Shown in pieces: positions 7,487 to 57,658 of a DNA stretch of 64,000 nt. Position numbers and translations under genes: made by a program. The stretch covers positions 63,446 through 127,445 of the forward strand of contig DASQIK010000027.1 of NCBI GenBank assembly GCA_035631615.1, written 5' to 3'. The DNA is from Candidatus Dormiibacterota bacterium (GTDB lineage: Bacteria > Chloroflexota > Limnocylindria > Limnocylindrales > CSP1-4). The notes beneath the pieces were generated by a model. That model had not been told where the DNA came from and ran no database searches. It was given only the letters and a program-made list of their open reading frames with translations. Positions within the stretch are counted from its first letter, which is position 1, and each line of letters starts with the position of its first letter.

Positions 7487-8020
7487 CTGCTCGGCGAGGC
7501 CGAGCTGTTCCGCCAGGCGTTCCGAAGGCACGCCACGACGGTCGCCATCATCACGTACCTCGACGGGGCGGGCCGGCCATGCGGGATGACGGCAACCTCG
7601 ATGTGCTCGCTGTCGGCTTCACCGCCGTCGCTCCTGGCCTCCATCAGCCGCGCCTCGCGCGCGCACGCCGCCCTATCGGCGCGGGGGCGATTCGGGGTCA
7701 ATCTCCTGTCGATCGGGCAGCGGAGCGTAGCACTCCACTGCAGCGTTCCAGGGCAGGACAAACGCCTTCGCGACGAGTGGCTCGCCTCGGATGCGCCCGT
7801 GGACGCCTCGCCGCGGCTGCGCGGCTCCCTCGCGCATCTTGAGTGCACGGTCGACCGGTCCTTCGAGGTGTTCTCGCACTCGTTGTTCGTGGGGCTGATC
7901 AATGGCGCGTGGCTCAACCCGGTGGAAGCACCGCCACTGCTCTACCACGGCGGCGTGTACAGCCAGCTCGAGTCCGCGATCGAGCGGTCCGAGCGCTTCC
8001 ACTGGGAGTTGCAGGAGTGA
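7487..8020 (+). CDS. hpaC: flavin reductase (HpaC-like NAD(P)H-flavin oxidoreductase)
   Basis: 'FRQAFRRHATTVAIITYLDGAGRPCGMTATSMCSLSASPPSLLASI' matches E. coli HpaC '[45 protein letters not shown]'. The frame is open back to 7403 but no ATG/GTG/TTG exists before Met at 7586, so the start is undefined. Confidence 0.65.
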   Translation: MLGEAELFRQAFRRHATTVAIITYLDGAGRPCGMTATSMCSLSASPPSLLASISRASRAHAALSARGRFGVNLLSIGQRSVALHCSVPGQDKRLRDEWLASDAPVDASPRLRGSLAHLECTVDRSFEVFSHSLFVGLINGAWLNPVEAPPLLYHGGVYSQLESAIERSERFHWELQE

Positions 8021-8051
8021 CGGCCCGGATCCCGCCACGACGGCGGTGGCG

Positions 8052-8966
8052 GTGAGTCGGGCGTCCGGCCGCCATGCCTTGGTCACCGGCGGAGCCGGAT
8101 TCGTCGGGAGTCACCTCGTCGATCGCCTCCTCGCCGAGGGTTGGCGGGTGCTGGTGATCGATGACCTGTCAAATGGTCGGCCCGGGAACGTCGCCGGCGG
8201 GGTGAGGGTCGAAGCTTTCGACATCGCCATCGCGGACATGGATGCCGCGTTTCGAGCGTGGCATGCTCGCGTCGTCTTCCACCTCGCGGCACAGACGAGC
8301 GTGCCCGTCTCGATGCAGGCACCGCTCCGCGACCTCGCGGTCAACGTCACCGGTACCCATCGCGTGGCGGCCGCGGCGCGGGACGCCGGGGCGGAACGGC
8401 TCGTGTTCGTCTCGTCCGCGGGAGCCATCTACGGTGAGACCACCCGGCCGGCAACCGAGGCGACGCTCCCGGCCCCGAGCTCCTACTACGGCGTGCACAA
8501 GCTCGCGGCAGAGGGACAGGTCACGCTGTGCGGGCTGCCCTACGCGATCGCCCGACCGACCAACATCTACGGTCCCCGGCAGGCGAGCGGGCTGGAGGGT
8601 GCGGTCGTGGCGGCCTTCGTCAAGCAGGGGCTTGCCCGCCAGGCGCTCACGATCGACGGCGACGGCCGGCAGACGCGCGACTTCGTCCATGTTCGTGACG
8701 TGGTCGACGCGCTGGTCCGCCTTGGCGACACCACTGGCCCGGTCGGGACCTGGAATGTCGCCTCCGGACGACGGACTTCGATCGAAGACCTGGCCGGCGT
8801 CGTCGAGCGCGGCGTCGGCGTCGAGCTGGGACGCGTCCGCCGTCCGACACGACTCGGCGACGTGCGCCATTCCTCCGCGTCAGCCCTTCGGCTGCGGACG
8901 CTTGGTTGGCGACCCACCGTCTCGCTCGCCGGCGGGATTCGAGAGCTGCTCCACCCGCTTCGCTGA
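8052..8966 (+). CDS. NAD-dependent epimerase/dehydratase (UDP-sugar epimerase-like SDR)
   Basis: Rossmann motif 'ALVTGGAGFVGSHLVDRLL', catalytic 'YYGVHKLAAE' (YxxxK), and 'NIYGPRQ'. GTG start at 8052 follows the hpaC stop. Confidence 0.75.
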   Translation: MSRASGRHALVTGGAGFVGSHLVDRLLAEGWRVLVIDDLSNGRPGNVAGGVRVEAFDIAIADMDAAFRAWHARVVFHLAAQTSVPVSMQAPLRDLAVNVTGTHRVAAAARDAGAERLVFVSSAGAIYGETTRPATEATLPAPSSYYGVHKLAAEGQVTLCGLPYAIARPTNIYGPRQASGLEGAVVAAFVKQGLARQALTIDGDGRQTRDFVHVRDVVDALVRLGDTTGPVGTWNVASGRRTSIEDLAGVVERGVGVELGRVRRPTRLGDVRHSSASALRLRTLGWRPTVSLAGGIRELLHPLR

Positions 8967-9154
8967 GGTCGACGGACTCGGCGGGCAGCACCCGTGCGTC
9001 CCGTCGATGACGGTGGCGCCGACGCAGGACAGGCGAGTCGGAACGGCCGGACCTTCTGCCTACACGATCGGGTCCGATGGTCGGGCTGTTGCCAGAACGC
9101 CCCCGCCCATAAGGTCCAGTGAGCGTCGAGCGCACACCGGTCGGCGGCTTCAAC

Positions 9155-9232
9155 CGAAATAGCACACCCGTCGCGAGGCGGGGCCGCAAAGCCACGGGAC
9201 TCCCCGAGGAGTTAGCCGGGTTGCCGAAAGGG
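9155..9232 (+). ncRNA. candidate c-di-GMP-I (GEMM) riboswitch in the 5' leader of the GH16-like gene
   Basis: 'CCGAAAUAGCACACCCGUCGCGAGGCGGGGCCGCAAAGCCACGGGACUCCCCGAGGAGUUAGCCGGGUUGCCGAAAGGGAG' has a P1 hairpin CCCGUC-GCGA-GGCGGG (GNRA loop), then 'GCCGCAAAGCC' and a 3' 'AGCCGGGUUGCCGA'. These parallel Vibrio Vc2 'GGGCAAACC...GAAA...GGGACGCAAAGCC...AGCGGGGUUACCGA'. A near-identical copy sits at 29005..29085. Confidence 0.55.
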
Positions 9233-9240
9233 AGCATCGA

Positions 9241-10638
9241 ATGCCCTCTCTGCGCGCGCTTGCGCGGCCATTTCAAGGTCCGCGCCACGGTTCGACTCGA
9301 CACTCCCGGTTCGGCCGCGGCGCGGGGCGAATCCTCGCGGTCGCCGGCATGGCCCTGCTCGTGAGCCCGCTCACACTCCACGGCCCGCTGACCCCGACCC
9401 TGGCAATGACGCCCGGTTCGGCCGCCGCGGGAGTCCGGGTCCTGGTCACCGGGACGAACTTCGCGCAGCGAAGACTGGTCCAGCTCACCTGGGATGGATC
9501 GACCGGCGGCATGCCGACCCTGAACACCGGGCGAGATGGCCAGTTCGCCGCGACCATGATCGTCCCGTACACCGCGCCGGGGGCGCATACCCTTGGCGCG
9601 TTGATGGTCCAGACCAGGTCCGCCTTGCCAAGCACCGTGAGCCCCGCCTCCCAGATCGTCCTGGCGTCCGAGACGTTCACGATCACGACCGACGAGGCGT
9701 CTGCGGATCCAAGCGTGCTGCCCACCATCGACCCTGGCCCGACACCGGACCCGACCTTCATGCCGGATCCCACGGCGGCGCCGCTTCCCACGCCGACGCT
9801 CGAGCCGACCGTTACGCCCGCTCCAGATCCGACCGCCCGCCCGACGGCCGCGCCGACCGCCAGGCCGGCGCCCAAGCCCACCCCGCGTCCCACCCCCCGG
9901 CCCACGCCCAGGCCGACGCCTCCGCCGAGTGGCGGCGTCCCGCCGATGCCAGCGGCCGACCTCCTGCGGAAGAACTTCGCGGATGGGTCCCTGTGGCCGT
10001 TCCGCGTCGTCGACTACCCGAATGACCATCCGACCGACCCGATGTCCTGGGCGTGCGATTACAAGACCGACAGCAGCGTGGTCTCGGTCCATGATGGCTA
10101 CCTCCACCTGCGGGCATACCCGAAGGCCGGCGGCCGCTGGAACTGTGGCTTCGTCTCGACGGGCATGGACGCGAACGGACACGGCGCGTCGTTCAGCGTC
10201 AGGTACGGCTACGTGCAGTTCGCCGCCAAGATCAATGTCGGTCACGCAACGTGGCAGGCCCCGCTGTGGCTCCTCAACACGGTCACGGGCTGGAACGCGG
10301 CCGAGATCGACGTGGCCGAGGTCATCGGCGGCCGGCTGACGTACAACCTCCACGGCACGACCGAGCGCCGGGTGGGCTCGGTGGCGCCCCCGAGCAACAT
10401 GGCCTCCGCGTGGCACGTGTTCGGCGTTGCCAAGACGAGCAACCACATCACGTTCGTCATGGACGGCAGGGTCATCGGCCGCTGGTACGGCTCGATGACC
10501 GACCCGATGGCGCTGCTCGCCGACAGCAAGGTCGGCATCAAGTGGGACAACCTCTACCCGAACAGCACCACCCCGTCGCCCACGTGGGTCAAGCTCGCGT
10601 GGATCACCGTCTCCTCGCACATCCCCAGCGGCCTCTAG
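9241..10638 (+). CDS. secreted GH16-like (concanavalin-like glucanase) protein with Pro/Thr-rich linker
   Basis: RBS AAAGGGAG precedes the ATG. The N-terminal hydrophobic segment 'ILAVAGMALLVSPL' is followed by a ~70 aa PT-rich linker (PTPDPT...PRPTPRPTPRPTPPP). The C-terminal domain carries 'WQAPLWLLNTVTGWNAAEIDVAEV' (GH16 ExDxxE-like). It is paralogous to 29094..30428. Confidence 0.7.
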   Translation: MPSLRALARPFQGPRHGSTRHSRFGRGAGRILAVAGMALLVSPLTLHGPLTPTLAMTPGSAAAGVRVLVTGTNFAQRRLVQLTWDGSTGGMPTLNTGRDGQFAATMIVPYTAPGAHTLGALMVQTRSALPSTVSPASQIVLASETFTITTDEASADPSVLPTIDPGPTPDPTFMPDPTAAPLPTPTLEPTVTPAPDPTARPTAAPTARPAPKPTPRPTPRPTPRPTPPPSGGVPPMPAADLLRKNFADGSLWPFRVVDYPNDHPTDPMSWACDYKTDSSVVSVHDGYLHLRAYPKAGGRWNCGFVSTGMDANGHGASFSVRYGYVQFAAKINVGHATWQAPLWLLNTVTGWNAAEIDVAEVIGGRLTYNLHGTTERRVGSVAPPSNMASAWHVFGVAKTSNHITFVMDGRVIGRWYGSMTDPMALLADSKVGIKWDNLYPNSTTPSPTWVKLAWITVSSHIPSGL

Positions 10639-10769
10639 TCACGACGTCGTCCCGAAGGGTGCACCGCGCGTCCACGACGCGTGACGTACCCTTTGGGCGA
10701 TAGCCGTTCGGGAGACCCCGCCAGCCAGGTCGGTCCGGTGACGCCCCGAGGGGTCGAGAAGGACGCGCC

Positions 10770-12248
10770 TTGGCCATTGATCGACATTCGGGCGCCCGTC
10801 TGCTCCTCCTCGTGCTGTCGGTGGCAGGCCTCGCCGGTCTCGCCCTCGCTGCGCGACCACGCAAGGATTCCGTGCCGGTTCTCACCCCGCTCCCGTCCAT
10901 CTCGGTGCCTGCGCCTGCAGCGAGCGATCTATTCGTCTCAACGTCGGGGCACGACGGGTCGGCCGGCTCAGCCTCCGATCCCCTTGCATCCCTCCAGGCC
11001 GCGGTCGATCGCGTCGCGCCTGGAAGCACCGTGTGGGTAGAGCCCGGCAGGTACCAGGGCTTCGGGCTCCGTCGCGGCGGTCTCTCGGGCGCGCCCATCA
11101 CCATCGCGGCCACGACCCCGGGGACCGCCGTCATCACGCCCTTCGGTGTCGACTCCACGATCGACCTCGTCGGCGCTTCACACGTCGATCTGATCAACCT
11201 CGTCGTCGAGGGGCCGACATCCGGAATGCTGAGCGCCGTCTACCTCGAACGGAGCAGCGCGATCACGATCGAGGGCTGCACCCTCCGGGGGACGACCGGC
11301 GGTTTCGGCGTCCAGGTCCGCTTCTCGTCGGACGTGACCATCCGCGACAACGACATCCTCCACAACGCGATGGGAGTGCGCCTGTATGGCGAGGGTGACC
11401 CGAGTTCCGTGCATGACGTCCTGATCGAGGACAACTGGATCCACGACAGCGATTCGATGGTCGTGAACGATGCTGCTCCGAACAACGACTACGGCGCAAA
11501 TGGGATCGTCTGGCACAAGGTCACCGGGACCACTATCGCCCGCGGGAACAAGCTCTGGGCGAACCGCGCGGTGAGCCACGACTACGGATACGACGGCGGT
11601 GCCTTCGAGATCTGGGGCTCGAGCAACGCCCAGATCGTCAGCAACGTCGCCTGGGACAACGAAAACGTGATGGAGACCGGGTCGGATGGGCCGGACTGCA
11701 CGAACATCTCGTTTCTCAGAAACGTGGCGTACGCGCCCAGCTTCGGCGTCGGCCTGATCCTTCGGTGTGCCCGTGACTCGCTCATCGCAAACAACGTCCT
11801 CGACCACCTTCAGTCGTACGCGTTCGAACTCAGTGATCGCTCTGGTGGAAATCAGTTCGCGACATCGATCGACGGCCTCAGGATCGAGAACAACATCGTG
11901 GTCGGATCGCTCGCGTACGCCATTCGCAACGCCCTCCCGGCGACCGTCGTCCTCGACTACAACGTCCTACCGCCTCGACGGGCCATCGCGTCGTTCCCGA
12001 ACGGTGTGGTCAGCGTCTCGGTCGCGGCGTTCACGCGCGCCACTGGCCAGGATTCCCACTCGATCGCGGTCGATCCGGCATTCGTGGCCGCCTCCGCGCA
12101 CGACTACCGGCTTCGGCCCGGATCGCCGGCGATCGACCGCGGCACCGTGGTGATCCCGGGAGAAACGTTCCTCGGTGCCGCGCCGGACATCGGGGCCTAC
12201 GAGGGCGCCGCTGCGCTCCCCTCTCCGTCGCCCGCCGGATCCGGCTGA
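10770..12248 (+). CDS. secreted right-handed parallel beta-helix repeat protein (pectate-lyase/NosD-like fold)
   Basis: TTG start after RBS GAGAAGGA; signal peptide 'ARLLLLVLSVAGLAGLALAA'. Repeated 'VxIxDNxIxxN' beta-helix turns ('VTIRDNDILHN', 'VLIEDNWIHDS', 'LRIENNIVVGS'). Confidence 0.65.
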   Translation: MAIDRHSGARLLLLVLSVAGLAGLALAARPRKDSVPVLTPLPSISVPAPAASDLFVSTSGHDGSAGSASDPLASLQAAVDRVAPGSTVWVEPGRYQGFGLRRGGLSGAPITIAATTPGTAVITPFGVDSTIDLVGASHVDLINLVVEGPTSGMLSAVYLERSSAITIEGCTLRGTTGGFGVQVRFSSDVTIRDNDILHNAMGVRLYGEGDPSSVHDVLIEDNWIHDSDSMVVNDAAPNNDYGANGIVWHKVTGTTIARGNKLWANRAVSHDYGYDGGAFEIWGSSNAQIVSNVAWDNENVMETGSDGPDCTNISFLRNVAYAPSFGVGLILRCARDSLIANNVLDHLQSYAFELSDRSGGNQFATSIDGLRIENNIVVGSLAYAIRNALPATVVLDYNVLPPRRAIASFPNGVVSVSVAAFTRATGQDSHSIAVDPAFVAASAHDYRLRPGSPAIDRGTVVIPGETFLGAAPDIGAYEGAAALPSPSPAGSG

Positions 12249-13483
12249 CGCAGGCGTCCGACGGCGCGAGCCGCAAGGGTCCGGATCGTCTGCACGACCA
12301 TGCGGGCGGCGGGCCTTGGGTCATCGCGCGCGACCCACGCTCGCTCCTCGACGCCCCGGAGGCTCGAGAGGTAGCCGCGAAGCCCGAGCTCTCCGCGCCA
12401 AGCGAGCTTGATGGAGGTCGCGAGATCCTGGTCCTCCACCAGCCAGCGCCGGCCTTCGGGAGCGCGGCCGCCGGGCACGGACTGACCGGTCAGGTCCAGG
12501 TACAGCGCCCGCACGACATCGAGGCCGTTCCGCGCGACGAACAGCCGGAATGAGCTGCCGATGCGCGGATTGACGTCGAGCAACTTGTAGCGGCCGTCGC
12601 GCGCGTCGTACCGGAAGCCGAGGTCGACCATGCCGCGGTAGCCGAGATCACCGAGAAACCGCACCGCGAGCTCACGGACCACCTCGTTGCTCACCACCAC
12701 GCCGAGCGTCGTCGCGCCGGTGCGTGGCGGCGCCTGGCGGATCTTCTGGCCGACGATTCCGATCGGGCTCGCACCATTCCGATCGAAGTAGCCGTTGAAC
12801 ATCCAGATGGAGCGCGCATCGCCGGGGATGAACTCCTGAAGCATGAGATTCGGCTCGCCGGGGTCTTCGATGCGGTCGTACAGCTCGATCGCCTCGTTCC
12901 GGGTGTGGGCGACGGCCACGCTCACCGCCCGGGGGCGGCGCCGCAGGATTCGCGGATCCATGCTCTTCAGGACGATCGGGTAGCCGAGCTCCTCGGCGCC
13001 GGCCAGCATCTCGTCGCGTGAGGTCGGAAACCGCGCCGCCGGCGTTGGGATGCCGGCCCGCAGGCACAGGTTGTGCAGGCGGCCTTTGTCGCTGAGCTCG
13101 AGCGGCAGGCCAGCGGGCTGATCCGGGAGCAGGAACTCCCGTGGCAGCTGGGCGAAGTTGTCGGCCACGAACAGGGCGGCCACGTCGTCAGCGGCAATCA
13201 GCAGCGCTCGCGTGCCGATCCGGGCGGCGACGCGCCGGAGCAGCTCAAGGATCGCCACGTCCCCGGCCTCCGGCGGCGGCATCCCCGTCCGGCTTGCCAC
13301 GTACCGGCTGCGGGCGGGCGGAGCGTCCGGGTCTCGCGTCGCCAAGTGCACGCGAACCCCGAGCCGGCCAAGCGAGCGGGCGATCGCGAGCGTGCCGTGC
13401 TGGAAGGGGTCGCTGGTGAGCTTGAACACGGCGACCGGCGTACCGGCATCGACGAGTGGGCTGGTGAGACGAGCGTCGATCAA
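12197..13483 (-). CDS. ATP-grasp domain ligase
   Basis: Pre-ATP-grasp 'AVFKLTSDPFQHGTLAIARSLGRLGVRVHLA', then 'YPIVLKSMDPRI...LMLQEFIPG...' and 'YRGMVDLGFRYDARDGRYKLLDVNPRIGSSF' (ATP-grasp C-terminal motif). TTG start 2 nt after the comB stop. Confidence 0.7.
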   Translation of the reverse strand: MIDARLTSPLVDAGTPVAVFKLTSDPFQHGTLAIARSLGRLGVRVHLATRDPDAPPARSRYVASRTGMPPPEAGDVAILELLRRVAARIGTRALLIAADDVAALFVADNFAQLPREFLLPDQPAGLPLELSDKGRLHNLCLRAGIPTPAARFPTSRDEMLAGAEELGYPIVLKSMDPRILRRRPRAVSVAVAHTRNEAIELYDRIEDPGEPNLMLQEFIPGDARSIWMFNGYFDRNGASPIGIVGQKIRQAPPRTGATTLGVVVSNEVVRELAVRFLGDLGYRGMVDLGFRYDARDGRYKLLDVNPRIGSSFRLFVARNGLDVVRALYLDLTGQSVPGGRAPEGRRWLVEDQDLATSIKLAWRGELGLRGYLSSLRGVEERAWVARDDPRPAARMVVQTIRTLAARAVGRLRQPDPAGDGEGSAAAPS

Positions 13484-13485
13484 GT

Positions 13486-14205
13486 TCAGCTGGTGGCGCC
13501 CGTGCGCACGACCACCTCGCTGTTGCGCATCTCATAGGTGGTCGTGACGTCGGTCACGTGCTCGAGGATGAACGACAGGTCGTCGAGCTGCCCGGAGTCG
13601 CGCAGGTAGCGCGCGCTCTTGCCCTCCGTGATCGCGGCTGCCGGCGCGTCGCGCCAGGTGTCCACCACTCGGCGCGTCTCGTCATCGGCGTCATAGCCGG
13701 CGTCGATGAGCGGGCCGGCGATCCAGGCGCAGCAGAGCTGGTCCTCCTCGCGGAACTCGCCGCGTGTGCCGGCGCCGAGGAGCACGACCTCCGGGGGTCG
13801 GGCTCGCACGAGTTCCGCGGCCTGCGCCTCCCAGTTCCGCAGGCAGGCAAGGAACGTCGTCGGATGGGCCGCCGCCGCGGTCCGGAGGAGGCGCGTCCCC
13901 GAAGTCGACAGGAGAATCGCCGGGCGACTCGGGTCGCCGGCGCGAGCGATCGCCGCGGGGCTGTTGTTCAGGTCGAAGCCGTAGGGCATGTTCCCGCCGA
14001 GCTCCCCGACCAGCAGCGGGTGCTCGAGGCGAGCCTGGAGCTCTGCGACCTCGTCCAGGTTCGCGGCCACGAAGCACCGACGCCCACCCGCGACCGCGGT
14101 GATCGCCGTGGTCGTGGAGCGGATGACGTCGACGCCGACCACGACCGCGTCACGCGCGTAGCCGCGGAGCTCCGCGAGGTAGACCTCGATCCTGACGGAC
14201 GGCAT
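13486..14205 (-). CDS. comB: 2-phosphosulfolactate phosphatase (ComB family)
   Basis: 'VVVGVDVIRSTTTAITAVAGG' matches the ComB signature (VIDVLRAS/TT). Length 239 aa; sits 3 nt downstream of comA. Confidence 0.75.
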   Translation of the reverse strand: MPSVRIEVYLAELRGYARDAVVVGVDVIRSTTTAITAVAGGRRCFVAANLDEVAELQARLEHPLLVGELGGNMPYGFDLNNSPAAIARAGDPSRPAILLSTSGTRLLRTAAAAHPTTFLACLRNWEAQAAELVRARPPEVVLLGAGTRGEFREEDQLCCAWIAGPLIDAGYDADDETRRVVDTWRDAPAAAITEGKSARYLRDSGQLDDLSFILEHVTDVTTTYEMRNSEVVVRTGATS

Positions 14206-14208
14206 CCC

Positions 14209-15024
14209 TCAGGCGTCGCTCGGGCTGGGGGCAGGCGGCCGCAGGTTCGCGTGGCCGAACGCATCCGAGTGCAGCCCGCGCCGGTAGATCTCCACCCGCA
14301 GGAGCTCCTCGAGGCGCACGTTGCACAGCCGCACCTCCGGACCGAAGTGATTGAGCAGCGCGAACTGGCTGGGCTTGTTCGGGGCCTCGAACATCGTGAT
14401 CCCGAACCCGAACGCCTCGACGAAGCGCTCGGCCAGCGCCGTGTTGAGGTTGCCGTCCATGTCGAACAAGCCGACGCCCTTTGCGCTCTCGCGCGCCTCC
14501 ACGACCAGCTCCTTCGCGCCCGCATCCAACCAGCGTCTGCCCTGCTCGACCAGCTCCTCGGCGACGTCGTTTGTGAACGCGCCGCCGTGCTTCTTGCCGA
14601 GCTCGAACTGGAAGTCGAGGCCACGCGCCGCGGCCAGATGCGCCACCGTCTCGGGTGCGAGCCGCATGTCAGTGAAGCCCTCGCCACACTCGAACCTGTC
14701 GAACCCGATCTCGGCGCAGAGGTCCAGATATGCCTCGAGCTGGCCCTGTGCGACGGCCACCTCGAAGGGGCCACCACCGGTGACGGTGGGCACGCCGTGC
14801 TTCTTTGCCGCCGCGACTTTCGCCCGGGTTGCGCCCTCGTCAGCAATGATCCAGCACGCCATCGAGACCTTCAGGATCGAGATCAGGTGGTGGCTCTGCG
14901 CCAGATGGGATTCGAGGGTGACCGGGTCATAGCCCGGGTCGAACGGGCTTGTCGATGGCTCGAGGCTGCGCACGCCGATCGCGCGCAGGTAGCTGGCGAG
15001 GTAGCCATGGGCATCAGCCGTCAT
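14209..15024 (-). CDS. comA: (2R)-phospho-3-sulfolactate synthase (ComA family)
   Basis: 'AKELVVEARESAKGVGLFDMDGNLN...GITMFEAPNKPSQFALLNHFGPEVRLCNVRLEELLRVEIYRRGLHSDAFG' aligns with M. jannaschii ComA 'ADYVIIEGRESGKGIGLFDKEGKV...[48 protein letters not shown]'. Confidence 0.8.
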   Translation of the reverse strand: MTADAHGYLASYLRAIGVRSLEPSTSPFDPGYDPVTLESHLAQSHHLISILKVSMACWIIADEGATRAKVAAAKKHGVPTVTGGGPFEVAVAQGQLEAYLDLCAEIGFDRFECGEGFTDMRLAPETVAHLAAARGLDFQFELGKKHGGAFTNDVAEELVEQGRRWLDAGAKELVVEARESAKGVGLFDMDGNLNTALAERFVEAFGFGITMFEAPNKPSQFALLNHFGPEVRLCNVRLEELLRVEIYRRGLHSDAFGHANLRPPAPSPSDA

Positions 15025-16310
15025 TCCTCCCGTCCCTCCTGAACCCGCGGGCGTCGAGCCTGGATCTGTGGCCGAATGATTTCACGGTAGATGACCGGCA
15101 GCATCGGCAGCACCTCGAGGCCCATCGCGACTGCCACGCCGATCCCGAGGCCGCGGAGGCCGCCGGCGGTCGCGCCGAGGTATCCGCCGAGGATCTCGAT
15201 CAGGGCCCCAAGCGCAACGAGTCGAGTCGCGGACGAGAGGTGGCCTCGAACGCGCTGGATGGTGATGTACTGGCCCTTGAATACGCCGCCGATGACGGTC
15301 AGCGGCAGGGCGAAGAGGGCTTCCGTGCCCGCGTCCGAGTAGCCGCGTCCGAAGATTCGGAGGACGATCGGCCCGAGGATCCACAGCGCCACGGCACTGC
15401 CGACGCCGGTCACGATCGAGAGCCGGAGCGTCAGCCAGCCCCACCTGGCAAGGGATCCGGGCTCGCGCGACGCTTCCGCAAACAGGATCCACGTGAATGC
15501 CACCTGGACGAAGGCGGCGATGCCGACGAGCTGCCACGCCAGGAAGAAGCCGGCATTCGAGCTGGCCGAGAGCGCGGTGACTGCCACGATCGGCATCGCC
15601 CAGCCCGGAACCTGGATCGCGAGGTTCAGCATGTGATGCTGCAGCGACGCGAGCCACTGCTGGCCGAGAAACTCCCAGTGGAACGGGTAGGCGGCTCGCA
15701 GGTTGCCACGACGCCCCGCGATCAGGGCGAGGACGACGAGCGAGAGCCCCGTCGAGATCACCCACGGGGCGATCATGCCGAGCCCGGCCGAGGCGAGCGC
15801 GAACGACGCAAACATTGCGAGCAACAGGAGGCGCAGCAGGGCCGCGAGCACGTTCCGGAAGAGTTGCAGCCCACTGCGCAGGAGACCGATCAGCGCCTGG
15901 TCGAGGACGAGACTGGCGGCAGTCACGCTCGCGCCGAGGGTCACGAGGACGATGGTGATGAGCGACTCGCGAAGCGGCGCGAAGTCCACCGACAGCAGCG
16001 GCGCGATCAGGACGAATCCCAGGCCCAGGACCCCGCCGACGGCGGCCGAAGCGACGAGCGACGTCGTGACGATCGCGATCTCGCGCCCCGGATGTGCCGG
16101 AATCTCACGGATGAGCAGCGTGCCCAGGCCCATCGCCCCGACCGCACCGACCAGCGACATGCCCGAGGTGACGGCGGACGCGAAGCCGACATCGGACTGG
16201 CTGAAGGTCCGACTCGCGATCAACCAGAAGACGAACCCGACGCCAGCCGTGAGCAGCTGGCTGAGGACCAGCGACGTGCTCGATGCGAGAAAGTCACGGA
16301 CCCGCGGCAT
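15021..16310 (-). CDS. polysaccharide biosynthesis protein, Wzx-like flippase (MOP superfamily)
   Basis: 429 aa polytopic membrane protein from Met 'MPRVRDFLASS...'; the ORF-finder N-terminal extension was rejected. Its stop overlaps the comA ATG (ATGA). Confidence 0.7.
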   Translation of the reverse strand: MPRVRDFLASSTSLVLSQLLTAGVGFVFWLIASRTFSQSDVGFASAVTSGMSLVGAVGAMGLGTLLIREIPAHPGREIAIVTTSLVASAAVGGVLGLGFVLIAPLLSVDFAPLRESLITIVLVTLGASVTAASLVLDQALIGLLRSGLQLFRNVLAALLRLLLLAMFASFALASAGLGMIAPWVISTGLSLVVLALIAGRRGNLRAAYPFHWEFLGQQWLASLQHHMLNLAIQVPGWAMPIVAVTALSASSNAGFFLAWQLVGIAAFVQVAFTWILFAEASREPGSLARWGWLTLRLSIVTGVGSAVALWILGPIVLRIFGRGYSDAGTEALFALPLTVIGGVFKGQYITIQRVRGHLSSATRLVALGALIEILGGYLGATAGGLRGLGIGVAVAMGLEVLPMLPVIYREIIRPQIQARRPRVQEGREE

Positions 16311-17074
16311 CAGGCGCTCCCTGTGCCGGTCGAGTACGTGACCCGCCGGTACACGACGTCCGGCTGCGAGGCGACGTAGACGAGGACCTCGAGTGGCGGT
16401 CCGCCCCGGGCTGGCTGGGGCACGAGCGTGGTCCATCGCTCCCCCATCGCGACCGTGATCGCAGGGAACGACCTCTGGATGATACCGCCGACGGTCACGT
16501 CCACCCGGTACGTCGTCGTCGCGAGCTCCTGGTTGTCGAGACCGATCTTGACCATCCCCGACCCTGCCGGTACGACCCACAGGGCCGAGAACGGCTCCGA
16601 CGGCTGCTTGACACCGGCGCGTGCGATGAGCAGCGAGACCATCATCAGGACGCATGCGGCGACCATCGCAAGCGCCTGCCCGTTCGTCGGCCTGACCCAC
16701 GACTCGCGACGGAGCGGCGGCAGACCGCGACGGGCAAACACGGCGATGGCCAGCAGGAGGACGGCGACGAGCCCGAGCCAGGCGGTCCGGCTGAGGCCGC
16801 CGGGGATCAGGTTGAGGACGAGCCCACCGATCGCGATGCAACCGAGGCTCAGCGCCGAAGCGACGAGGAACAGGTCCAACCGCCGCAGGGACTCGACCGG
16901 GCGGCGGGTGATCGCAAGGACGATCCCCGGGAGAATCAGCACGACCAGCGCCACGGAGGCCAGCACGAACGCGATGATCCCGGCGATCGACGCCGCGAGG
17001 ATCACGGCGAGTGCGACCGCGCCGGTCAGCGCCAGCACCACCAGCGCGGTGCCGGGGGGCGTTCTACCGAGCAC
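16310..17074 (-). CDS. membrane protein (DUF1616-like: N-terminal TM helices plus C-terminal beta-rich domain)
   Basis: Four predicted TM helices followed by a soluble ~90 aa domain. Its stop overlaps the flippase start (TGATG). Confidence 0.5.
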   Translation of the reverse strand: MLGRTPPGTALVVLALTGAVALAVILAASIAGIIAFVLASVALVVLILPGIVLAITRRPVESLRRLDLFLVASALSLGCIAIGGLVLNLIPGGLSRTAWLGLVAVLLLAIAVFARRGLPPLRRESWVRPTNGQALAMVAACVLMMVSLLIARAGVKQPSEPFSALWVVPAGSGMVKIGLDNQELATTTYRVDVTVGGIIQRSFPAITVAMGERWTTLVPQPARGGPPLEVLVYVASQPDVVYRRVTYSTGTGSA

Positions 17075-18980
17075 CGGCGAGCCGCCTCACGTCGTACAGC
17101 TGGATGTCGCCGCTGTCATAGATGCGATCGACCCGCGGGACGCTGTCCCACTTGGCAAGCACAGTCGCGAGGATCGGCGTGGCGTGCCGTCGCTCGAAGA
17201 TCTCGCCCTCCTCGTAGTAGAACGGCACCAGGGGGAGACTCGAAGCCAATCGACGGTCGATCAGGATGTAGTCGATGCGCGCCGCCTTGATTCGGGCGAT
17301 CTCGAGCGGCCCGACGACCGGCGATAGGAAGATCTGCCAGGTTTCGACGTGGCCCGATGTGTAGAAGACCACGTCGGCCTGCCCGTACGAACCCAACAGG
17401 AGCCGATTGACCCGATCCCCGGCAACCCGCCGATTCGGGCCAAGGACGGCAAGCGTCCAGCCGGCCGCGGCGATGCTCTCGTTGTCGATCGACCGCGAAT
17501 CCGCGCCGACGAGGTATGGCCCCGGGAACCTCGTGGCCGGCGCCGTGCCGATCACCGCGCCGCCAAGGATGGCGAGGCACACGATGGCCACGAACGCGCC
17601 CGTCCACACCTGTTGCGACCGGGCCGGCGAGCCACGGATGGTCCACCGAACCGGATCGCGGGTGCCGCGGACGCGCCCCGCGATCGTCTCGGCCGTTGCG
17701 ATCACGCCGAGCGCGACGACGAACGAGAGCCCGAGGAACACGAAGCCGAGGCTTCGTCCGGCGGCCTCGCTGCCCGTAGGCGTGAGTCGCGCGACCAGGC
17801 TCAGGGGATAGGCGAGGGCAAGCAGCCCGAGCAGCAGGGCGAGGGAGTTGTCTCGATACCGCCGGATGAGCGGTGCCAGGCCGATCGGGATCGCCAGGGT
17901 CAGGAGCGCCGCGGTCCCCAGGCCGACCGCCCGCTCCCACACCGGCGCCACCTGGCCCGTCGCCGAGACGAAGGGCGTGCGGCCAACGCCCGTCGTCACC
18001 AGCCGTATGGCCTCGTTGATGGCTGCGGCAATCGGTGGCGCAAGGTAGCCCACGACGACCGGGCCCGCAAACACCAGCCAGAGGGCGGTGGCGCTGAGCA
18101 TGAGGGCGGTCGAGAAGATGATCCCCCATCGTCGGTACCGATCTCTTCGATGCACGATCCGGTTGACGACGATCCAGCCGACCAGGAGGGCAGCCGCCCC
18201 GTAGGTCGACACATGGTGGGTGATCGCCAGCGTCGCCGAGCTCGCCGCCAGCGCTGCGGCAAGGAGGACTCCGCCTCCGCGCTGAGCGCGGATGGCCGTG
18301 ATCAGGAGCACGACCGGGACGAGGGGAAGCGCGAGTGTCTCGTAGGAAAAGCCCGAGTCGAAGAACGTGAAGTTCGGGTTGAGCATGTAGATGGCGGTCG
18401 CCAGTCCGGCGACGCGCTCGGACGACGATGCTTCCCGATACAGCGCGAACAGGCCGATCGCGAACAATATTCTCGCGAACGCGAGCACGACGGCTGCGGC
18501 CGTGAACGGATCGACCCCGCTGATCTGGACCACCGCCGCCGTGACGATCTCGAGGCCCGGGAAGACCGGGCTGACGGGGAGGAGCGGGTTCGGCGTAAAG
18601 AGGTGGCCGGTGCTCAGAATGTCGGTGATCGTGCGGAGGTGGAGCAGCGCGTCGTAGTTCGTGAAGCCGGCGGGCGAGCTGACGAAGTGCACGACCTCGA
18701 GCACGAGACCGAGCACGAGCACGAGACCGACACGCTCCGCGGTTCCGGGTGCCTTCGCAGTCAGGCGCACCGTGATCGGGGCAGCGATCAAGAGGAGCCC
18801 GATCCAGAACAGCGGCTCGGCGTACTGGAACCCGGCGCCGACGAGGGCGAAGGACGAGGAGACAGCGACCACGCCGGCCGCGGCGACCAGCGACAGCGCC
18901 GGAAGCCAGCCCCAGCCGCGCGCGCGGTACGCCGCGGGATCGGGGCGCCCGAGCGGCGAATTCGAGCGCAGGTCTACCAC
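17064..18980 (-). CDS. large polytopic membrane protein, putative GT-C-type glycosyltransferase
   Basis: 638 aa with at least 12 hydrophobic segments across the N-terminal ~450 aa and a ~170 aa C-terminal soluble domain, as in GT-C/oligosaccharyltransferase-like enzymes. Overlaps the downstream gene by 11 nt. Confidence 0.5.
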   Translation of the reverse strand: MVDLRSNSPLGRPDPAAYRARGWGWLPALSLVAAAGVVAVSSSFALVGAGFQYAEPLFWIGLLLIAAPITVRLTAKAPGTAERVGLVLVLGLVLEVVHFVSSPAGFTNYDALLHLRTITDILSTGHLFTPNPLLPVSPVFPGLEIVTAAVVQISGVDPFTAAAVVLAFARILFAIGLFALYREASSSERVAGLATAIYMLNPNFTFFDSGFSYETLALPLVPVVLLITAIRAQRGGGVLLAAALAASSATLAITHHVSTYGAAALLVGWIVVNRIVHRRDRYRRWGIIFSTALMLSATALWLVFAGPVVVGYLAPPIAAAINEAIRLVTTGVGRTPFVSATGQVAPVWERAVGLGTAALLTLAIPIGLAPLIRRYRDNSLALLLGLLALAYPLSLVARLTPTGSEAAGRSLGFVFLGLSFVVALGVIATAETIAGRVRGTRDPVRWTIRGSPARSQQVWTGAFVAIVCLAILGGAVIGTAPATRFPGPYLVGADSRSIDNESIAAAGWTLAVLGPNRRVAGDRVNRLLLGSYGQADVVFYTSGHVETWQIFLSPVVGPLEIARIKAARIDYILIDRRLASSLPLVPFYYEEGEIFERRHATPILATVLAKWDSVPRVDRIYDSGDIQLYDVRRLAGAR

Positions 18981-26685: not shown

Positions 26686-27670
26686 GGCTCACCTTGTGAG
26701 CACAGCAGCTGCGATCCCCAGCAGCGTTTCGGTCGTCGTCTGCACCCACACCGTCGCGCGACGGCAGATCCTCGGGCACCTCATCGACTCGATCGCGGCC
26801 GGGACTGTCAAGCCCGTCGAAGTGGTGGTGGTCGTCGACCGCAATCGACCGCTCTTCGAGGCCCTGACCGCAGCGACCTGGCCGCTGTCGCTCCGTGTGA
26901 TCGAGAGCCGCGGGAGCGGTCTCTCGGCCGCCCGGAACGCCGGCTGGCAGACGGTGACCTCGCCACTCGTGGCGTTCATCGATGACGACGCGGTCGCGAC
27001 GCCCGGCTGGCTCGCGGAGCTGACCAACGCCGCGGATCGCCATGGTGCTGACGTCGTCGGTGGCGCCATCGAACCGCTGTGGAACGGCGACGCGCCGGGC
27101 TGGTACAGCCGATACCTCGGCTGGGTGGTCGGGTGCAGCTACGAGGGACTGCCCCGCGAGGCAGCACGCGTACGCAACGTGATCGGCTGCAACATGCTCT
27201 TCCGGCGCGAGCTCCTCGATCGGCTCGAAGGGTTCGACACCACCCTCGGCCGAACCAACAACGGACTCGCTGGTTGCGAGGAGACCGAGCTGTGCATCCG
27301 CGCGAATCGCGCCGGAGCCGCCGTGGTGCTGATCCCCGGGGCGCAGGTCTCGCAGGTCCTGCCGGCGGACCGCCGGCGCTTCCGTTACGCGGTGCGGCGC
27401 GGCTGGGACGAAGGCCGGTCGAAGCGGATGCTCGTTGCCATGCATGGACGGGTACTCGCCACCGAATCGAGCTATGCGCGAGCGCTCCTCCGCCAGGCCC
27501 TCGTCTGGGTCGGCACGGGAATCGTCGGGCGCCATGCATCGGACATCCGGCGCGCGGCCGCCCTGATCGCAGTGCTCACCAGCACGACGGCCTCATACCT
27601 CCTTCACGGGCTGCGCCGACCGACCCCGCGCGTCGTCGCACGGCCGCCCGTCACCGCGATCAACGGGTAA
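26678..27670 (+). CDS. glycosyltransferase family 2
   Basis: 'VSVVVCTHTVARRQ...VVVVVDRNRP...AFIDDDAVATPGWL' (GT2 DDD). Overlaps the upstream GT2 by 8 nt. Confidence 0.7.
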   Translation: MPEAHLVSTAAAIPSSVSVVVCTHTVARRQILGHLIDSIAAGTVKPVEVVVVVDRNRPLFEALTAATWPLSLRVIESRGSGLSAARNAGWQTVTSPLVAFIDDDAVATPGWLAELTNAADRHGADVVGGAIEPLWNGDAPGWYSRYLGWVVGCSYEGLPREAARVRNVIGCNMLFRRELLDRLEGFDTTLGRTNNGLAGCEETELCIRANRAGAAVVLIPGAQVSQVLPADRRRFRYAVRRGWDEGRSKRMLVAMHGRVLATESSYARALLRQALVWVGTGIVGRHASDIRRAAALIAVLTSTTASYLLHGLRRPTPRVVARPPVTAING

Positions 27671-28565
27671 CGCGAACCCAGTCGACCTGCAAGGTCGCGA
27701 CGGCTGGTGTCGTCGCGTCGGTAGCGCCGCAGAACCTGCCGCCAACCGCCTGGTCGAGGACGATCGCCATCTTCATGTCTGGCACATCCCCGTTGTTCGC
27801 GACGGTGAACGTGCTGGTCGCCAGGCCGTCGAAGTAGAACGTGACGTGGTCGGGGCGCCATTCAACCGAATAGACATGCCACGCTCCGGCCAGGTTGTCC
27901 GTGCGATACCCGATTGCGTAGCTCCGTGAACCGTCGGCCCTGTGGACGTAGTGGTGCAACAGGGTGATGTCGTTGCCGTTGTACATGCCTGCGTCGTTCG
28001 CGCAGACTTCCATCGCGTCGATCTCGGCCTGCTGGTGCAGGGCGTTCTGAGGCTGGGCGAGCCAGAACGCCGGCCACAGGCCGTTCCCCGCCTGGATCTT
28101 GATGCGCGCCGAGAAGACCCCGTATCGCTGCGTGAACGTCCCGACGGTATCGATGAGGCCGCCGATGTACCTGGAACCGGACCGGCGCGCCCTGATCGTG
28201 AGCAGGCCGTTTCCCAGAGAGATCTGCGACCGCGAAAAGGTCGTGGTGCCGAACCCGTCCCAGTGACGACCCCACACGGCCCCGAGGGTCTTGCCGTTGA
28301 ACTCGTCCCGAAAGGTGTAGACGGGCGGTGTCGGGATCGGGCTCGGCGCAATGGGGAGCGACGGCGGCGGATCGAACGTCGCCGCGGGCAGGCTCGATCT
28401 CGGCGACGGCACGACGCTCGTGACTGTCGTCGGGGATGGGACATAGCTCGCGAGGCAGGACGACGCGGCGCTGCTGGTGCACGGGCCGGGCCCGGTCTCG
28501 TTCAGGAGCACGACGACGAGCAGCACGGCCACGGCGAGTCCCGCCGCGATCAATCGGGTCTTCAT
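27660..28565 (-). CDS. secreted glycoside hydrolase family 16 (beta-glucanase/laminarinase-like)
   Basis: Start at internal Met 'MKTRLIAAGLAVAVLLVVVLL' (signal/TM). 'NGLWPAFWLAQPQNALHQQAEIDAMEV' gives the canonical GH16 GxWPAxW and ExDxxE motifs. The ORF-finder N-terminal extension was rejected. Confidence 0.75.
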   Translation of the reverse strand: MKTRLIAAGLAVAVLLVVVLLNETGPGPCTSSAASSCLASYVPSPTTVTSVVPSPRSSLPAATFDPPPSLPIAPSPIPTPPVYTFRDEFNGKTLGAVWGRHWDGFGTTTFSRSQISLGNGLLTIRARRSGSRYIGGLIDTVGTFTQRYGVFSARIKIQAGNGLWPAFWLAQPQNALHQQAEIDAMEVCANDAGMYNGNDITLLHHYVHRADGSRSYAIGYRTDNLAGAWHVYSVEWRPDHVTFYFDGLATSTFTVANNGDVPDMKMAIVLDQAVGGRFCGATDATTPAVATLQVDWVRVTR

Positions 28566-29004
28566 CGGCCTTTCGTGTGCTCGCTCAGGCGTTCCCCCGG
28601 CGGCCTGCAATCCTACTGGACGTGCGCATCGCCATCGGGCGAACGCGCAACGATGTGGCGCGTCCGCGCACTCTTGGGCTTCGGCAAGCTCAGCCTCGGG
28701 TCGTCGCGCCGCGGCCGTCGATCTCTCAACCAGGGCTTCTGCAAGCGTCGTTGCCGTCTCCGGAGACCCTGCGCCGCGACCCTGTGGGTCCGCCGGCGCA
28801 TGGATGGCCACCAGGCTGCACCTGCCATGAAGACAGGACCCGTAGGGTCCCCCGGAGTCTGGTGCGGTCTGCGATAGGCCGTTCTCTCCGCGGCAGAGGA
28901 CCATCGACCGGTACGTCGCGGAGATGAAGTCTCCTAGGGTCACGAAGGGACCTGGGGGCGCCCTCCGACGATGCGCGGCCAGCCAGCCTGGGCCCCCAAC
29001 TGGA

Positions 29005-29085
29005 CCGAAACGGCAAACCCGGGGCGACCCGGGGACGCAACGCCACGGGACTCCGCCGAGCGGAGCCAGCCGGGCTGCCGAAGGA
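29005..29085 (+). ncRNA. candidate c-di-GMP-I (GEMM) riboswitch, second copy
   Basis: 'CCGAAACGGCAAACCCGGGGCGACCCGGGGACGCAACGCCACGGGACUCCGCCGAGCGGAGCCAGCCGGGCUGCCGAAGGAG' has a perfect P1 hairpin CCCGGG-GCGA-CCCGGG. 'GGCAAACC', 'GGGACGCAACGCC' and 'AGCCGGGCUGCCGA' match GEMM-I conserved blocks. The RBS AGGAG is embedded in its 3' end. Confidence 0.6.
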
Positions 29086-29093
29086 GTGTTGAC

Positions 29094-30428
29094 GTGTCCT
29101 TTTGGGATGGGACTCGGTGGATCGAAGAGTCGAAGCCGACACGCACTCAGCCTGCCCCGCAGCCCTCGCGTCGAGGAACGACCGCGCGCCTCGGCGACCT
29201 GATCGCCACGACAGGCATGGTCGTCCTGCTGGGCGCGACCTTCATGCCCTTTGCAGCGGCCCAAGCGAGCGCGGCAAGCCTCTCGATCGCTCCGGCGAGC
29301 GGCCCGGCGGGTGCCACCGTCCAGGTCGTCGGCGCGGGCTTTGTCGCAGGAGCTCGTGCACAGCTGACGTGGGATGGCACCGCATCCGGGATGCCGGCGG
29401 TCAAGATCGGTGCAGCCGGCGACTTCCGGATCACGATCACGGTTCCTGCCGCACCGAGCGGTTCACACCACGTCGGTGCGGTGGACTCCGGGCTCCTGCC
29501 AAAGGGCCGTGCGAAGACGACGCAGCAGGTGACCCTCCTCGCAGTGGCGACGTTCGTCGAGGTCGGTGTCGGTCCCGCTCCGACTCCAACCAATCCGGCC
29601 CCTGCGCCGACCCCTCGGTCGACGGCGACGCCGCAATCGACGCCCAACCCAACCCCGACGCAGGCACCGACACCGCCGCCCGCCCCCACTGCGACGGCCG
29701 CCCCGACGGCGGCGCCGGGCACGGGTATCCCCGCGATGCCCCAGGCCGACCTGCTCCAGAAGGACTTCGCGGACGGCTCCCTGTGGCCGTTCAGAGTGAT
29801 CGACTACCCCAACAGCCATCCCGCCGACGCAATGAGCTATGCCTGTGACTACGGCCGGGACAGCAGCGTCGCGTCAGTCCACGACGGCTATCTCCAGCTG
29901 ACCGCCTACCCGCGTTCCGACGGGCGCTGGAACTGTGGCTTCGTGTCGACCGGCATGGACGGCAATGGCAATGGCGCATCGTTCAGCATGACCCACGGCT
30001 ACGTGCAGTTCGCGGCCCGGCTCAATGTCGGCTACGCCACCTGGCAGGCGCCGTTGTGGCTGCTCAACACCGTCACCGGGTGGAATTCCGCCGAAGTCGA
30101 CGTGGCCGAGGTGATGGCTGGAAGGCTGACATGCAACCTGCATGGGGTGGGCGACCTCCAGATCGCCTCGGTGGCGCCCTCGGCCGATCTCGCGACGACC
30201 TGGCACGTGTTCGGTGTCGCCAAGACCAGCGACCACATCACGTTCGTCATGGACGGCAAGATCCTTGGCCGGTGGAATGGTTCGATGCCGGACCCGCTGG
30301 CGCTCCTGGCGGACAGCAAGGTTGGCTACAAGTGGAACAGCGTGTATCCCGACGGCTCGACGCCGGACCCGACCTACGTGAAGATCGCCTGGGTGACCGT
30401 CGCCTCGAGCATCCCGAACGGCCTCTAG
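29094..30428 (+). CDS. secreted GH16-like protein with Pro/Thr-rich linker (paralog of 9241..10638)
   Basis: GTG start 7 nt after AGGAG. Signal 'LIATTGMVVLLGATFMPFAAAQASAASLS', a PT/PA-rich linker, and C-terminal 'WQAPLWLLNTVTGWNSAEVDVAEV'. The C-terminal domain is ~75% identical to the 9241 paralog. Confidence 0.7.
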   Translation: MSFWDGTRWIEESKPTRTQPAPQPSRRGTTARLGDLIATTGMVVLLGATFMPFAAAQASAASLSIAPASGPAGATVQVVGAGFVAGARAQLTWDGTASGMPAVKIGAAGDFRITITVPAAPSGSHHVGAVDSGLLPKGRAKTTQQVTLLAVATFVEVGVGPAPTPTNPAPAPTPRSTATPQSTPNPTPTQAPTPPPAPTATAAPTAAPGTGIPAMPQADLLQKDFADGSLWPFRVIDYPNSHPADAMSYACDYGRDSSVASVHDGYLQLTAYPRSDGRWNCGFVSTGMDGNGNGASFSMTHGYVQFAARLNVGYATWQAPLWLLNTVTGWNSAEVDVAEVMAGRLTCNLHGVGDLQIASVAPSADLATTWHVFGVAKTSDHITFVMDGKILGRWNGSMPDPLALLADSKVGYKWNSVYPDGSTPDPTYVKIAWVTVASSIPNGL

Positions 30429-31283: not shown

Positions 31284-31306
31284 AGCCCGTCGATGCAACG
31301 CCGCCC

Positions 31307-56455: not shown

Positions 56456-56508
56456 CAGCTGCGGCCTGGGCGCGGCCGCGGGGCGCTCGACAGTCACCCT
56501 CGGGACGC

Positions 56509-56784: not shown

Positions 56785-56995
56785 CGACCACCTCCGACAC
56801 CCACGCTATGTCCCGATCGACACGGTCACGAGTGCCGAACGGCGCTCCCGGGCAGGCCGTTCGGCTGCCACGAGGCGGCTGCGCCGGTTCGGGACCGGAG
56901 GCCTGCGCGCCGGGTGCCGATGGCACTTCCGGGATCCGCGCGCCTGCGGTTGCATGAGGTCGTCGATTCGTGCACACGTCCTGGAGGTCCCTCTC

Positions 56996-57582: not shown

Positions 57583-57658
57583 GCCGCACGCGCACCCGGA
57601 ATCCTCGGGCGCCGCCTCTTCGGCGGCGCCCAAGGGGCAGCCAGCGAGGCCGGCCCGC

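Follow-up and report, generated by a model that had tools for sequence, protein, structure and literature searches.

A GEMM-I aptamer that abuts the Shine-Dalgarno sequence of a GH16-like gene in a Chloroflexota genome, and its probable role as a translational switch

Does a riboswitch control a secreted, polysaccharide-cutting enzyme in an uncultured lineage of Chloroflexota? The locus that raises this question lies in a 64-kb stretch of contig DASQIK010000027.1, from a genome assembly of Candidatus Dormiibacterota; we call the whole stretch the window. A preliminary description had proposed, from the letters of the DNA alone, that the leader of a GH16-like gene near position 9241 contains an aptamer for cyclic di-GMP (c-di-GMP) of the c-di-GMP-I, or GEMM-I, class. 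We found that 9151-9228 is a genuine GEMM-I-class aptamer, far beyond chance. From its sequence and position, this element is very probably a GEMM-I translational switch ahead of the GH16 gene, which we read as an OFF switch that works by pairing between the P1 helix and the Shine-Dalgarno (SD) sequence and whose ligand is most likely c-di-GMP.

To identify the element, we searched the entire window, on both strands, with all 4227 Rfam families at their gathering thresholds (cmscan). This gave just two matches, both to RF01051 (c-di-GMP-I). The first (copy 1) is at 9151-9228 on the forward strand; it scores 62.4 bits, compared to a gathering score of 35 (E = 8e-10), and covers the full model (positions 1-87 of 87). 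The second (copy 2) is at 29002-29082 and was overlooked in the preliminary description. The other class, c-di-GMP-II (RF01786), had no match anywhere in the window, at its gathering score or at E ≤ 1. The four sequence blocks on which the first proposal was based are all present and in order: GCACACCC at 9162-9169, the hairpin CCCGUC-GCGA-GGCGGG at 9167-9182, GCCGCAAAGCC at 9183-9193 and AGCCGGGUUGCCGA at 9214-9227. The parts of copy 1 are as follows, with numbering by comparison to Vc2, the aptamer from the tfoY leader of Vibrio cholerae:

9151-9228, forward strand: GEMM-I (c-di-GMP-I class) aptamer, copy 1, of the A20 type, from the RF01051 match, the pair list and the pair counts
9155-9156, forward strand: proximal 5' strand of P1 (CG), with pairs C9155-G9226 and G9156-C9225; all 10 leaders have this CG/CG without variation
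9157-9161, forward strand: J1/2, in which A9161 is equivalent to G20 of Vc2
9162-9187, forward strand: P2, with a GC/GC base, a 3x3 internal loop, a 6-bp stem and a GCGA tetraloop (9173-9176)
9188, forward strand: A9188, equivalent to A47 of Vc2
9190-9222, forward strand: P3, a single uninterrupted hairpin with no tetraloop receptor
9223-9224, forward strand: J1/3 (G9223-C9224), in which C9224 is equivalent to C92 of Vc2

The overall layout is P2 with its GNRA tetraloop and P3, joined with P1 at a three-way junction, and the CG/CG pairs are also marked as P1 in the model for another Rfam family, RF03167. We mapped G20, A47 and C92 of Vc2 onto positions 11, 38 and 83 of the RF01051 model. The equivalents of A47 and C92, which contact the ligand, are kept, and the equivalent of G20 is an A. 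Copy 1 lacks the tetraloop receptor of the Rfam consensus (CUAA...UAU), with gaps of 4 and 3 nucleotides opposite CUAA and UAU. By all of the features that we examined, copy 1 belongs to the GEMM-I fold family.

The second aptamer and the genes that follow the two aptamers are placed as follows:

9241-10638, forward strand: gene downstream of copy 1, encoding 465 amino acids with a hydrophobic N-terminus, an Ig-like domain, a linker and a GH16 domain, from Pfam, the motif and the fold
29002-29082, forward strand: second GEMM-I aptamer, copy 2, of the G20 type (RF01051, 49.8 bits, E = 1e-6)
29083-29086, forward strand: SD sequence (GGAG) of copy 2, directly after the aptamer
29094-30428, forward strand: paralogous GH16-like coding sequence downstream of copy 2, with a GTG start; the products of the two genes are 53% identical

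Copy 2 has the same layout of aptamer, SD sequence and start codon as copy 1, with G29012, A29039 and C29078 as the equivalents of G20, A47 and C92. Two of the pairs in its P3 are non-standard.

Is the aptamer kept with this gene in other genomes? The copy-1 protein has few relatives (41 matches, the best of which is 73% identical). We retrieved 18 related loci, mostly by looking up exact proteins; a scan of species-representative genomes gave one, which is from a metagenome-assembled genome described as “uncultured Chloroflexia,” and a scan of metagenomes gave four. Among these loci, all 17 that include the 5' end of the gene carry the aptamer, even though their proteins have diverged to 28-73% identity. 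These include 14 of 14 close homologous loci, with RF01051 scores of 47-63 bits, and three of three more distant ones (L016, L017 and L018), whose proteins are merely 28-46% identical. In each aligned leader with a clear start codon, about 10-15 nucleotides separate the end of the aptamer from that codon, and the SD sequence lies 0-2 nucleotides past the aptamer in all 13 distinct leaders. At the start of the copy-1 gene, the residues MPSLRALAR are conserved and the changes at third codon positions are synonymous, which supports the choice of start codon.

The preliminary description had also made its proposal depend on whether the helices can form. Across 10 distinct leaders, 98.3% of the positions in the model's helices are paired, compared to 23-46% after the 3' partners have been shifted by 1-3 columns. 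Double-sided (compensatory) changes occur at three pairs, in P2 and in the distal part of P3. Because these leaders are close relatives, they covary little, and it is mainly the family model that supports the structure. The non-standard pairs in P3 of copy 2 might be expected if these elements were relics, or look-alikes that arose by chance, with no regulatory role. We consider this extremely improbable, given the E value over the full model, the recurrence at the same position in 17 loci with such diverged proteins, the compensatory changes, and the retention of every ligand-contacting position (aside from the alternation between A and G).

The GH16-like gene that the preliminary description placed downstream of the riboswitch is also well founded. 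The copy-1 protein matches Pfam PF00722 at 29.6 bits (the cut-off is 22), and the copy-2 protein matches it at 24.2 bits. The motif ExDxxE (E355, D357 and E360) is invariant in 14 sequences. The GH16-like proteins also have weak profile matches to laminarinases. The AlphaFold model of the copy-1 protein has a mean pLDDT of just 63.9 overall, and most of the GH16 domain is at about 65-89 (means over blocks of 10 residues). Foldseek's best matches to this model are endo-beta-1,3-glucanases, with 2hyk at E = 2.5e-12 and a TM-score of 0.73 on the target. Together, the Pfam match, the invariant motif and the predicted fold identify the product as a GH16-fold glycanase. Both proteins have an N-terminal hydrophobic segment (signal peptide or transmembrane), a beta-rich Ig-like domain, a Pro/Thr linker and the GH16 domain at the C-terminus; in the copy-1 protein, the last three are at about 50-150, 150-230 and 235-465. 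From the N-terminal segment, we predict that both proteins are secreted.

What do the aptamers sense? In Vc2, G20 pairs with one guanine of c-di-GMP (Hoogsteen, to G-alpha), C92 pairs with the other (Watson-Crick, to G-beta), and A47 intercalates. GEMM-Ib riboswitches, which sense cyclic GMP-AMP (cGAMP), have A in place of G20. In one of these, Gs1761, J1/2 is A9-A14 and P2 starts at C15-G40, so the specificity base is the nucleotide immediately 5' of the first P2 pair, which is position 11 of the model. A9161 aligns with G20 of Vc2 and A14 of Gs1761, which is the sole known determinant of specificity.

Comparing the leaders at this position separates them into two lineages. In the lineage of copy 1, all 10 distinct aptamers (copy 1 and nine others) have A at position 11, together with C at position 15 and C or U at position 34, while the other bases of J1/2 vary (GAAAU, ACAAG, GAAAG or GAACG). 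In the second lineage, which comprises copy 2 and the aptamers of L017 and L018, these three positions are G/A/A and the P2 stem is different. Aptamers are 81-97% identical within the A20 lineage, 86% identical within the G20 lineage, and 69-82% identical between lineages. Copy 2 is 86% identical to the aptamers of L017 and L018, with which it groups, and 74-80% identical to the A20-type aptamers. Since copy 1 is from the A20 lineage and copy 2 is from the G20 lineage, the window contains one aptamer of each kind, before paralogous genes.

From these sequences, c-di-GMP is most likely the ligand of both copies. Because of its A at the equivalent of G20, copy 1 probably has a weaker affinity for c-di-GMP than copy 2, which is of the G20 type, and it may also accept 3',3'-cGAMP. 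The G20A variant of Vc2 binds c-di-GMP at 53 nM and cGAMP at 120 nM, while for wild-type Vc2 the value for cGAMP is 10 µM. Cbe 1-2, which is a natural aptamer with A20, is bispecific. Because A at this position still permits c-di-GMP binding in Vc2 G20A, the assignment of copy 1 to the fold family stands and the assignment of its ligand is loosened. The original claim of control by c-di-GMP is supported, with a qualification: a GEMM-I aptamer does stay with this gene in 17 loci, but with A9161 in place of G20, c-di-GMP is a likely ligand and not a certain one. A lower affinity due to A20 would suit a translational switch under thermodynamic control, and the two paralogues could have different thresholds.

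Two results count against c-di-GMP as the ligand of copy 1. First, A at the equivalent of G20 is a known mark of GEMM-Ib riboswitches that are cGAMP-sensing or bispecific. Second, among the 29 proteins from the window that we scanned, none has a GGDEF, EAL or CD-NTase domain (as in diguanylate cyclases, phosphodiesterases or cGAMP synthases), and the motif GG[DE]EF does not occur in any frame of the window. Copy 1 might instead be a GEMM-Ib-like sensor of 3',3'-cGAMP, or deliberately bispecific, while copy 2 senses c-di-GMP and both act on translation in the same way. The alignment of A9161 with A14 of Gs1761, its invariance in 10 of 10 aptamers amid a variable J1/2, and its co-occurrence with particular bases at positions 15 and 34 (where copy 2, L017 and L018 differ) would all fit with this. 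So would the improved binding of cGAMP by Vc2 G20A relative to the wild type, and the Hammond laboratory expects that there are cGAMP riboswitches beyond Geobacter (PMC8835794). Yet A20 is not selective by itself, as both Vc2 G20A and Cbe 1-2 bind c-di-GMP as well or better, and the selective cGAMP riboswitches that are known cluster in Geobacter (PMC8835794). The lack of any Hypr-GGDEF or CD-NTase gene within the window is also a point against this reading. The selective riboswitches of Geobacter control genes for exoelectrogenesis and are not known to control glycanases. On balance, we think that a cGAMP-specific or deliberately bispecific copy 1 is unlikely. Similarly, we doubt that the A20 lineage as a whole (copy 1 and its nine relatives) is a cGAMP-responsive or bispecific GEMM-Ib-like class that lies outside the Deltaproteobacteria and acts on translation. 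If it were, then a single Chloroflexota cell would tell apart two cyclic-dinucleotide signals, or two concentration thresholds of one signal, by means of two nearly identical RNA folds, and these folds would control matrix-cutting enzymes, with an A20 aptamer on one glycanase and a canonical G20 aptamer on its paralogue.

With c-di-GMP as the most likely ligand, how would binding affect the gene? The relevant parts of the leader of copy 1 are:

9089-9115, forward strand: promoter-like element, TTGCCA (9089-9094), a 15-nucleotide spacer and TAAGGT (9110-9115)
9147-9151, forward strand: 5' flank rich in pyrimidines, GCUUC, which complements GGAGC (9231-9235) and which we propose as the anti-SD strand in the distal part of P1
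9230-9234, forward strand: SD sequence GGGAG, 2 nucleotides past the aptamer and 6 nucleotides ahead of the ATG at 9241

As the preliminary description had it, the aptamer is in the 5' leader and its 3' end abuts the SD sequence; it is on the sense strand of the gene. From the end of the aptamer to the ATG is just 12 nucleotides, and we found no terminator-like site on the forward strand between the aptamer and the start codon. This rules out a terminator-type platform and leaves control at the initiation of translation, or of mRNA stability that is linked to it.

In GEMM-I riboswitches, the 5' and 3' flanks pair to make P1, with the 3' strand right after the equivalent of C92, and stable binding requires a P1 of adequate length (PMC11705072). 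Vc2 is an OFF switch: the formation of P1 in the ligand-bound state represses translation (PMC11705072). In our leaders, P1 has CG-AA(A)-GGAG... as its 3' strand, and a P1 that extends beyond a few pairs therefore includes the SD sequence. We propose that the ligand would bind at the three-helix junction and stabilize P1, in which an internal loop rich in A would separate the conserved CG/CG pair from a helix of GCUUC with GGAGC. The stabilized P1 would mask the SD sequence and translation would fall, so this would be a ligand-OFF switch, as in Vc2. If the ligand is c-di-GMP, then a high level of c-di-GMP would shut down a secreted polysaccharide-cutting enzyme that is encoded among genes for the synthesis of exopolysaccharide.

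Complementarity between the 5' flank and the SD region is seen in other leaders as well: CGCUUC with GAAGCG in L006, GCGCUUU with GGAGCGC in L003, UCCA with UGGA and GCGC with GCGC in L012, and CCCA with UGGG in L001. RNAduplex predicts that these flank-SD helices have energies of -7 to -15 kcal/mol. In each of the three transcript models that we folded, the SD sequence is less accessible if the junction is enforced (mean unpaired probability of 0.17-0.23) than if it is forbidden (0.21-0.38), which is a small shift towards OFF. Several other results weigh against this mechanism. Depending on the locus, 0.8%-92% of shuffled 5' flanks reach the observed duplex energy in these GC-rich leaders, and cognate pairs of flank and SD sequence are no better than non-cognate pairs. 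The SD sequence is predicted to be mostly paired in the holo-like and apo-like ensembles alike. Also, in the group A leaders, the SD sequence is complementary to codons 2-4, which are a second possible partner. Overall, the complementarity hints weakly at a flank-SD helix, and the evidence tips only slightly towards the OFF direction.

The main competitor is an ON switch. Without ligand, the SD sequence would be held by the 5' flank or by codons 2-4, and binding would give the flank or the aptamer's 3' strand another partner, which would free the SD sequence. That the SD sequence is predicted to be largely paired even if the junction is forbidden would fit this, as would the complements in codons 2-4 (GGGAG with CUCUCU in copy 1 and GGAAG with CUUC in L006). 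GEMM-I switches of both the ON and OFF types are known from the literature. The location of the gene among exopolysaccharide-synthesis genes, including an ExoK-like GH16 gene, would also suit an ON switch, as the glycanase might be made along with the exopolysaccharide; many exopolysaccharide operons include processing glycanases of the ExoK type that are expressed together with their other genes. On the other hand, the 3' strand of P1 starts 1 nucleotide past the equivalent of C92, and the SD sequence is 6 nucleotides later, so a P1 that is long enough for binding must reach the SD sequence. Enforcing the junction lowers the accessibility of the SD sequence in every transcript model. Finally, CUCC in the 5' strand of P3, which we considered as an internal anti-SD sequence, is not conserved; it is CUCA or CUCG in L006, L011 and L015. 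An ON switch is possible, and we rate it somewhat above the cGAMP alternative and clearly below OFF.

The beginning of the coding sequence has a pattern of its own. Codons 1-4 (AUG CCC UCU CUG, at 9241-9252) complement the SD sequence, and they change along with it in L006, L011 and L015. Within group A, GGGAG is found with CUCUCU or CCCUCCC, while GGAAG is found with CCUUC.

Upstream of the aptamer, the pattern TTGCnn-15-TA(A/G)GGT is common to the group A leaders of copy 1, L006 and L016, with a variant in L015. A scan for consensus sigma-70 promoters reported nothing at 9089-9115. Its conservation suggests that this element could be a promoter, which would put the start of transcription near 9122 and give a 5' untranslated region of about 120 nucleotides. 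More broadly, there are conserved upstream blocks at 9048-9115, at 28898-28950 and in the upstream regions of L001-L018. One of these blocks, GGACC(A/T)TC, lies further upstream and is common to all three groups of leaders. In copy 1, it forms an inverted repeat (GGACC...GGTCC), which could be an operator or else the terminator of the upstream gene.

We also considered the surrounding genes. The neighbors include an NAD-epimerase, a Pel9A-like beta-helix protein, an ATP-grasp enzyme, ComA/ComB-like enzymes, DUF6541 membrane proteins, and glycosyltransferases (GT4/GT1 and two GT2). By its predicted functions, this is a neighborhood of the cell-envelope or exopolysaccharide type. In L006, L008 and L011, the gene order is epimerase, NUDIX, the GH16-like gene with its aptamer, Pel9A-like beta-helix and ATP-grasp (on the reverse strand), followed by two more reverse-strand genes that encode a protein like 2-phosphosulfolactate phosphatase and a protein like phosphosulfolactate synthase (ComA). 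The window has the same order at 7902-15024, except that NUDIX is absent. This conserved order with ComA-type genes hints at a pathway for a sulfonated or otherwise modified glycan.

Two adjoining open reading frames at 16310-18980 (reverse strand) have sub-threshold matches to DUF6541, and they are probably a single membrane protein of the glycan-assembly type. This family also adjoins the pair of GH16 and beta-helix genes in L010. Right after the stop codon of the copy-1 gene, at about 10640-10720 on the forward strand, is a very stable long hairpin (-80.6 kcal/mol for a fold of 166 nucleotides, z = -3.45 compared to shuffles). Located between the GH16 gene and the gene for the beta-helix protein, and with no U tract, it may serve to terminate transcription, to direct processing or to stabilize the mRNA.

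Near copy 2, a third GH16 gene (27660-28661, reverse strand; PF00722, 73.7 bits) has a weak likeness to ExoK/EglC endo-1,3-1,4-beta-glycanases in NCBIfam. It is divergent from copy 2 and has no riboswitch match upstream at E ≤ 1. Just 3' of the copy-2 gene, 30962-32878 (forward strand) encodes a class III adenylate/guanylate cyclase domain (PF00211, 199 bits) with a sub-threshold PAS domain. This is a second nucleotide-signaling component, next to a gene under putative control by a cyclic dinucleotide. This PAS-cyclase does not count as a cyclic-dinucleotide enzyme; it is a class III mononucleotide cyclase. Among the distant homologues, L018 has two GH16 genes in a GH16-GH16-GH26 operon and L017 has one, in GH16-GH26. 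These operons adjoin polysaccharide-synthesis genes and carry aptamers of the G20 type (2163-2243 in L017 and 2412-2489 in L018). At the other end of the window, 55409-63983 (reverse strand) encodes subunits of a 2-oxoacid:ferredoxin oxidoreductase and the C-terminus of the large subunit of a NiFe-hydrogenase, which gives some metabolic context for the lineage. The housekeeping genes indicate uncultured Chloroflexota: the malic enzyme is 74-76% identical to proteins from metagenome-assembled genomes of Ca. Limnocylindrales and Chloroflexota.

What does this locus add to what is known? This class of riboswitch is well known, and any Rfam scan should be expected to turn up such a find. The preliminary description stated that annotation would miss it, which is true of pipelines that consider only open reading frames, but any pass with Rfam and Infernal finds the aptamer. 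The additions are modest: the lineage of the host, the regularity with which the aptamer accompanies GH16 glycanases, and the pair of A20 and G20 aptamers in one genome. We know of no signaling biology for this lineage of Chloroflexota. If our reading is correct, then secreted GH16 glycanases, next to exopolysaccharide-synthesis genes, are under direct control by a cyclic dinucleotide in an uncultured soil and freshwater lineage, which is a testable tie between the level of a second messenger and the remodeling of the matrix. The A/G pair would be a natural experiment on how GEMM-I aptamers choose their ligand or tune their affinity, and these compact switches (about 95 nucleotides) are possible sensors to try.

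How do these aptamers compare to known systems? Two other Rfam families, RF03168 (c-di-GMP-I-UAU) and RF03167 (c-di-GMP-I-GGC), are in the same clan as RF01051 (CL00126), and both score highly because they share the receptor-less P3. In permissive mode, RF03168 scores 63.0 bits on copy 1, which is below its gathering score of 65.9. It has the uninterrupted P3, but its consensus is U at the positions of G20 and C92, where copy 1 has A and C. By the score and the absence of these defining bases, we ruled out membership in RF03168. Similarly, RF03167 scores 54-66 bits on L016-L018 in permissive mode. It has the same CG/CG in P1, but its consensus is G at the position of A47 (GCGAA), while all of our aptamers have GCAAA or GCAAC; without the defining G, they are not members. 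The aptamer of L017 exceeds the gathering score for RF03167 even so (66 vs. 59), which is a caution for automated annotation.

In Clostridioides difficile, c-di-GMP riboswitches control the secreted protease ZmpI/PPEP-1 and the adhesins that are its substrates. As in our proposal, a riboswitch for a cyclic dinucleotide lowers the production of a secreted enzyme that dismantles the surface or matrix when c-di-GMP is high. This is a functional analogy alone: the C. difficile enzyme is a protease, its control is transcriptional, and the host is a Firmicute.

The GEMM-Ib riboswitches of Geobacter (Gs1761, Gm0970 and pilM) are closer in structure. They have the same fold, with A at the equivalent of G20 (A14 in Gs1761) and the CG/CG pair at the top of P1. 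The J1/2 of our group B leaders (ACAAGA) even has A where Gs1761 has A9, A11, A12 and A14, which contact the ligand, given what we take to be the full J1/2 sequence of Gs1761. The Geobacter examples are transcriptional ON switches (pilM) and precede genes for cytochromes and pili in Deltaproteobacteria, whereas here the control appears to be translational and the gene is for a glycanase in Chloroflexota.

The closest comparison in mechanism is to Vc2. Vc2 and copy 1 share the RF01051 model, the three-helix junction, A47, C92 and a translational platform, and the OFF switching of Vc2 is driven by P1, as we propose here. Where Vc2 has G20, a GAAA tetraloop and an 11-nucleotide receptor in P3, copy 1 has A, a GCGA loop and an uninterrupted P3 with no receptor. 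Finally, according to a study cited in PMC11705072, the ribosome-binding site that Vc2 masks is distant from the aptamer, while in both copies here it abuts the aptamer.

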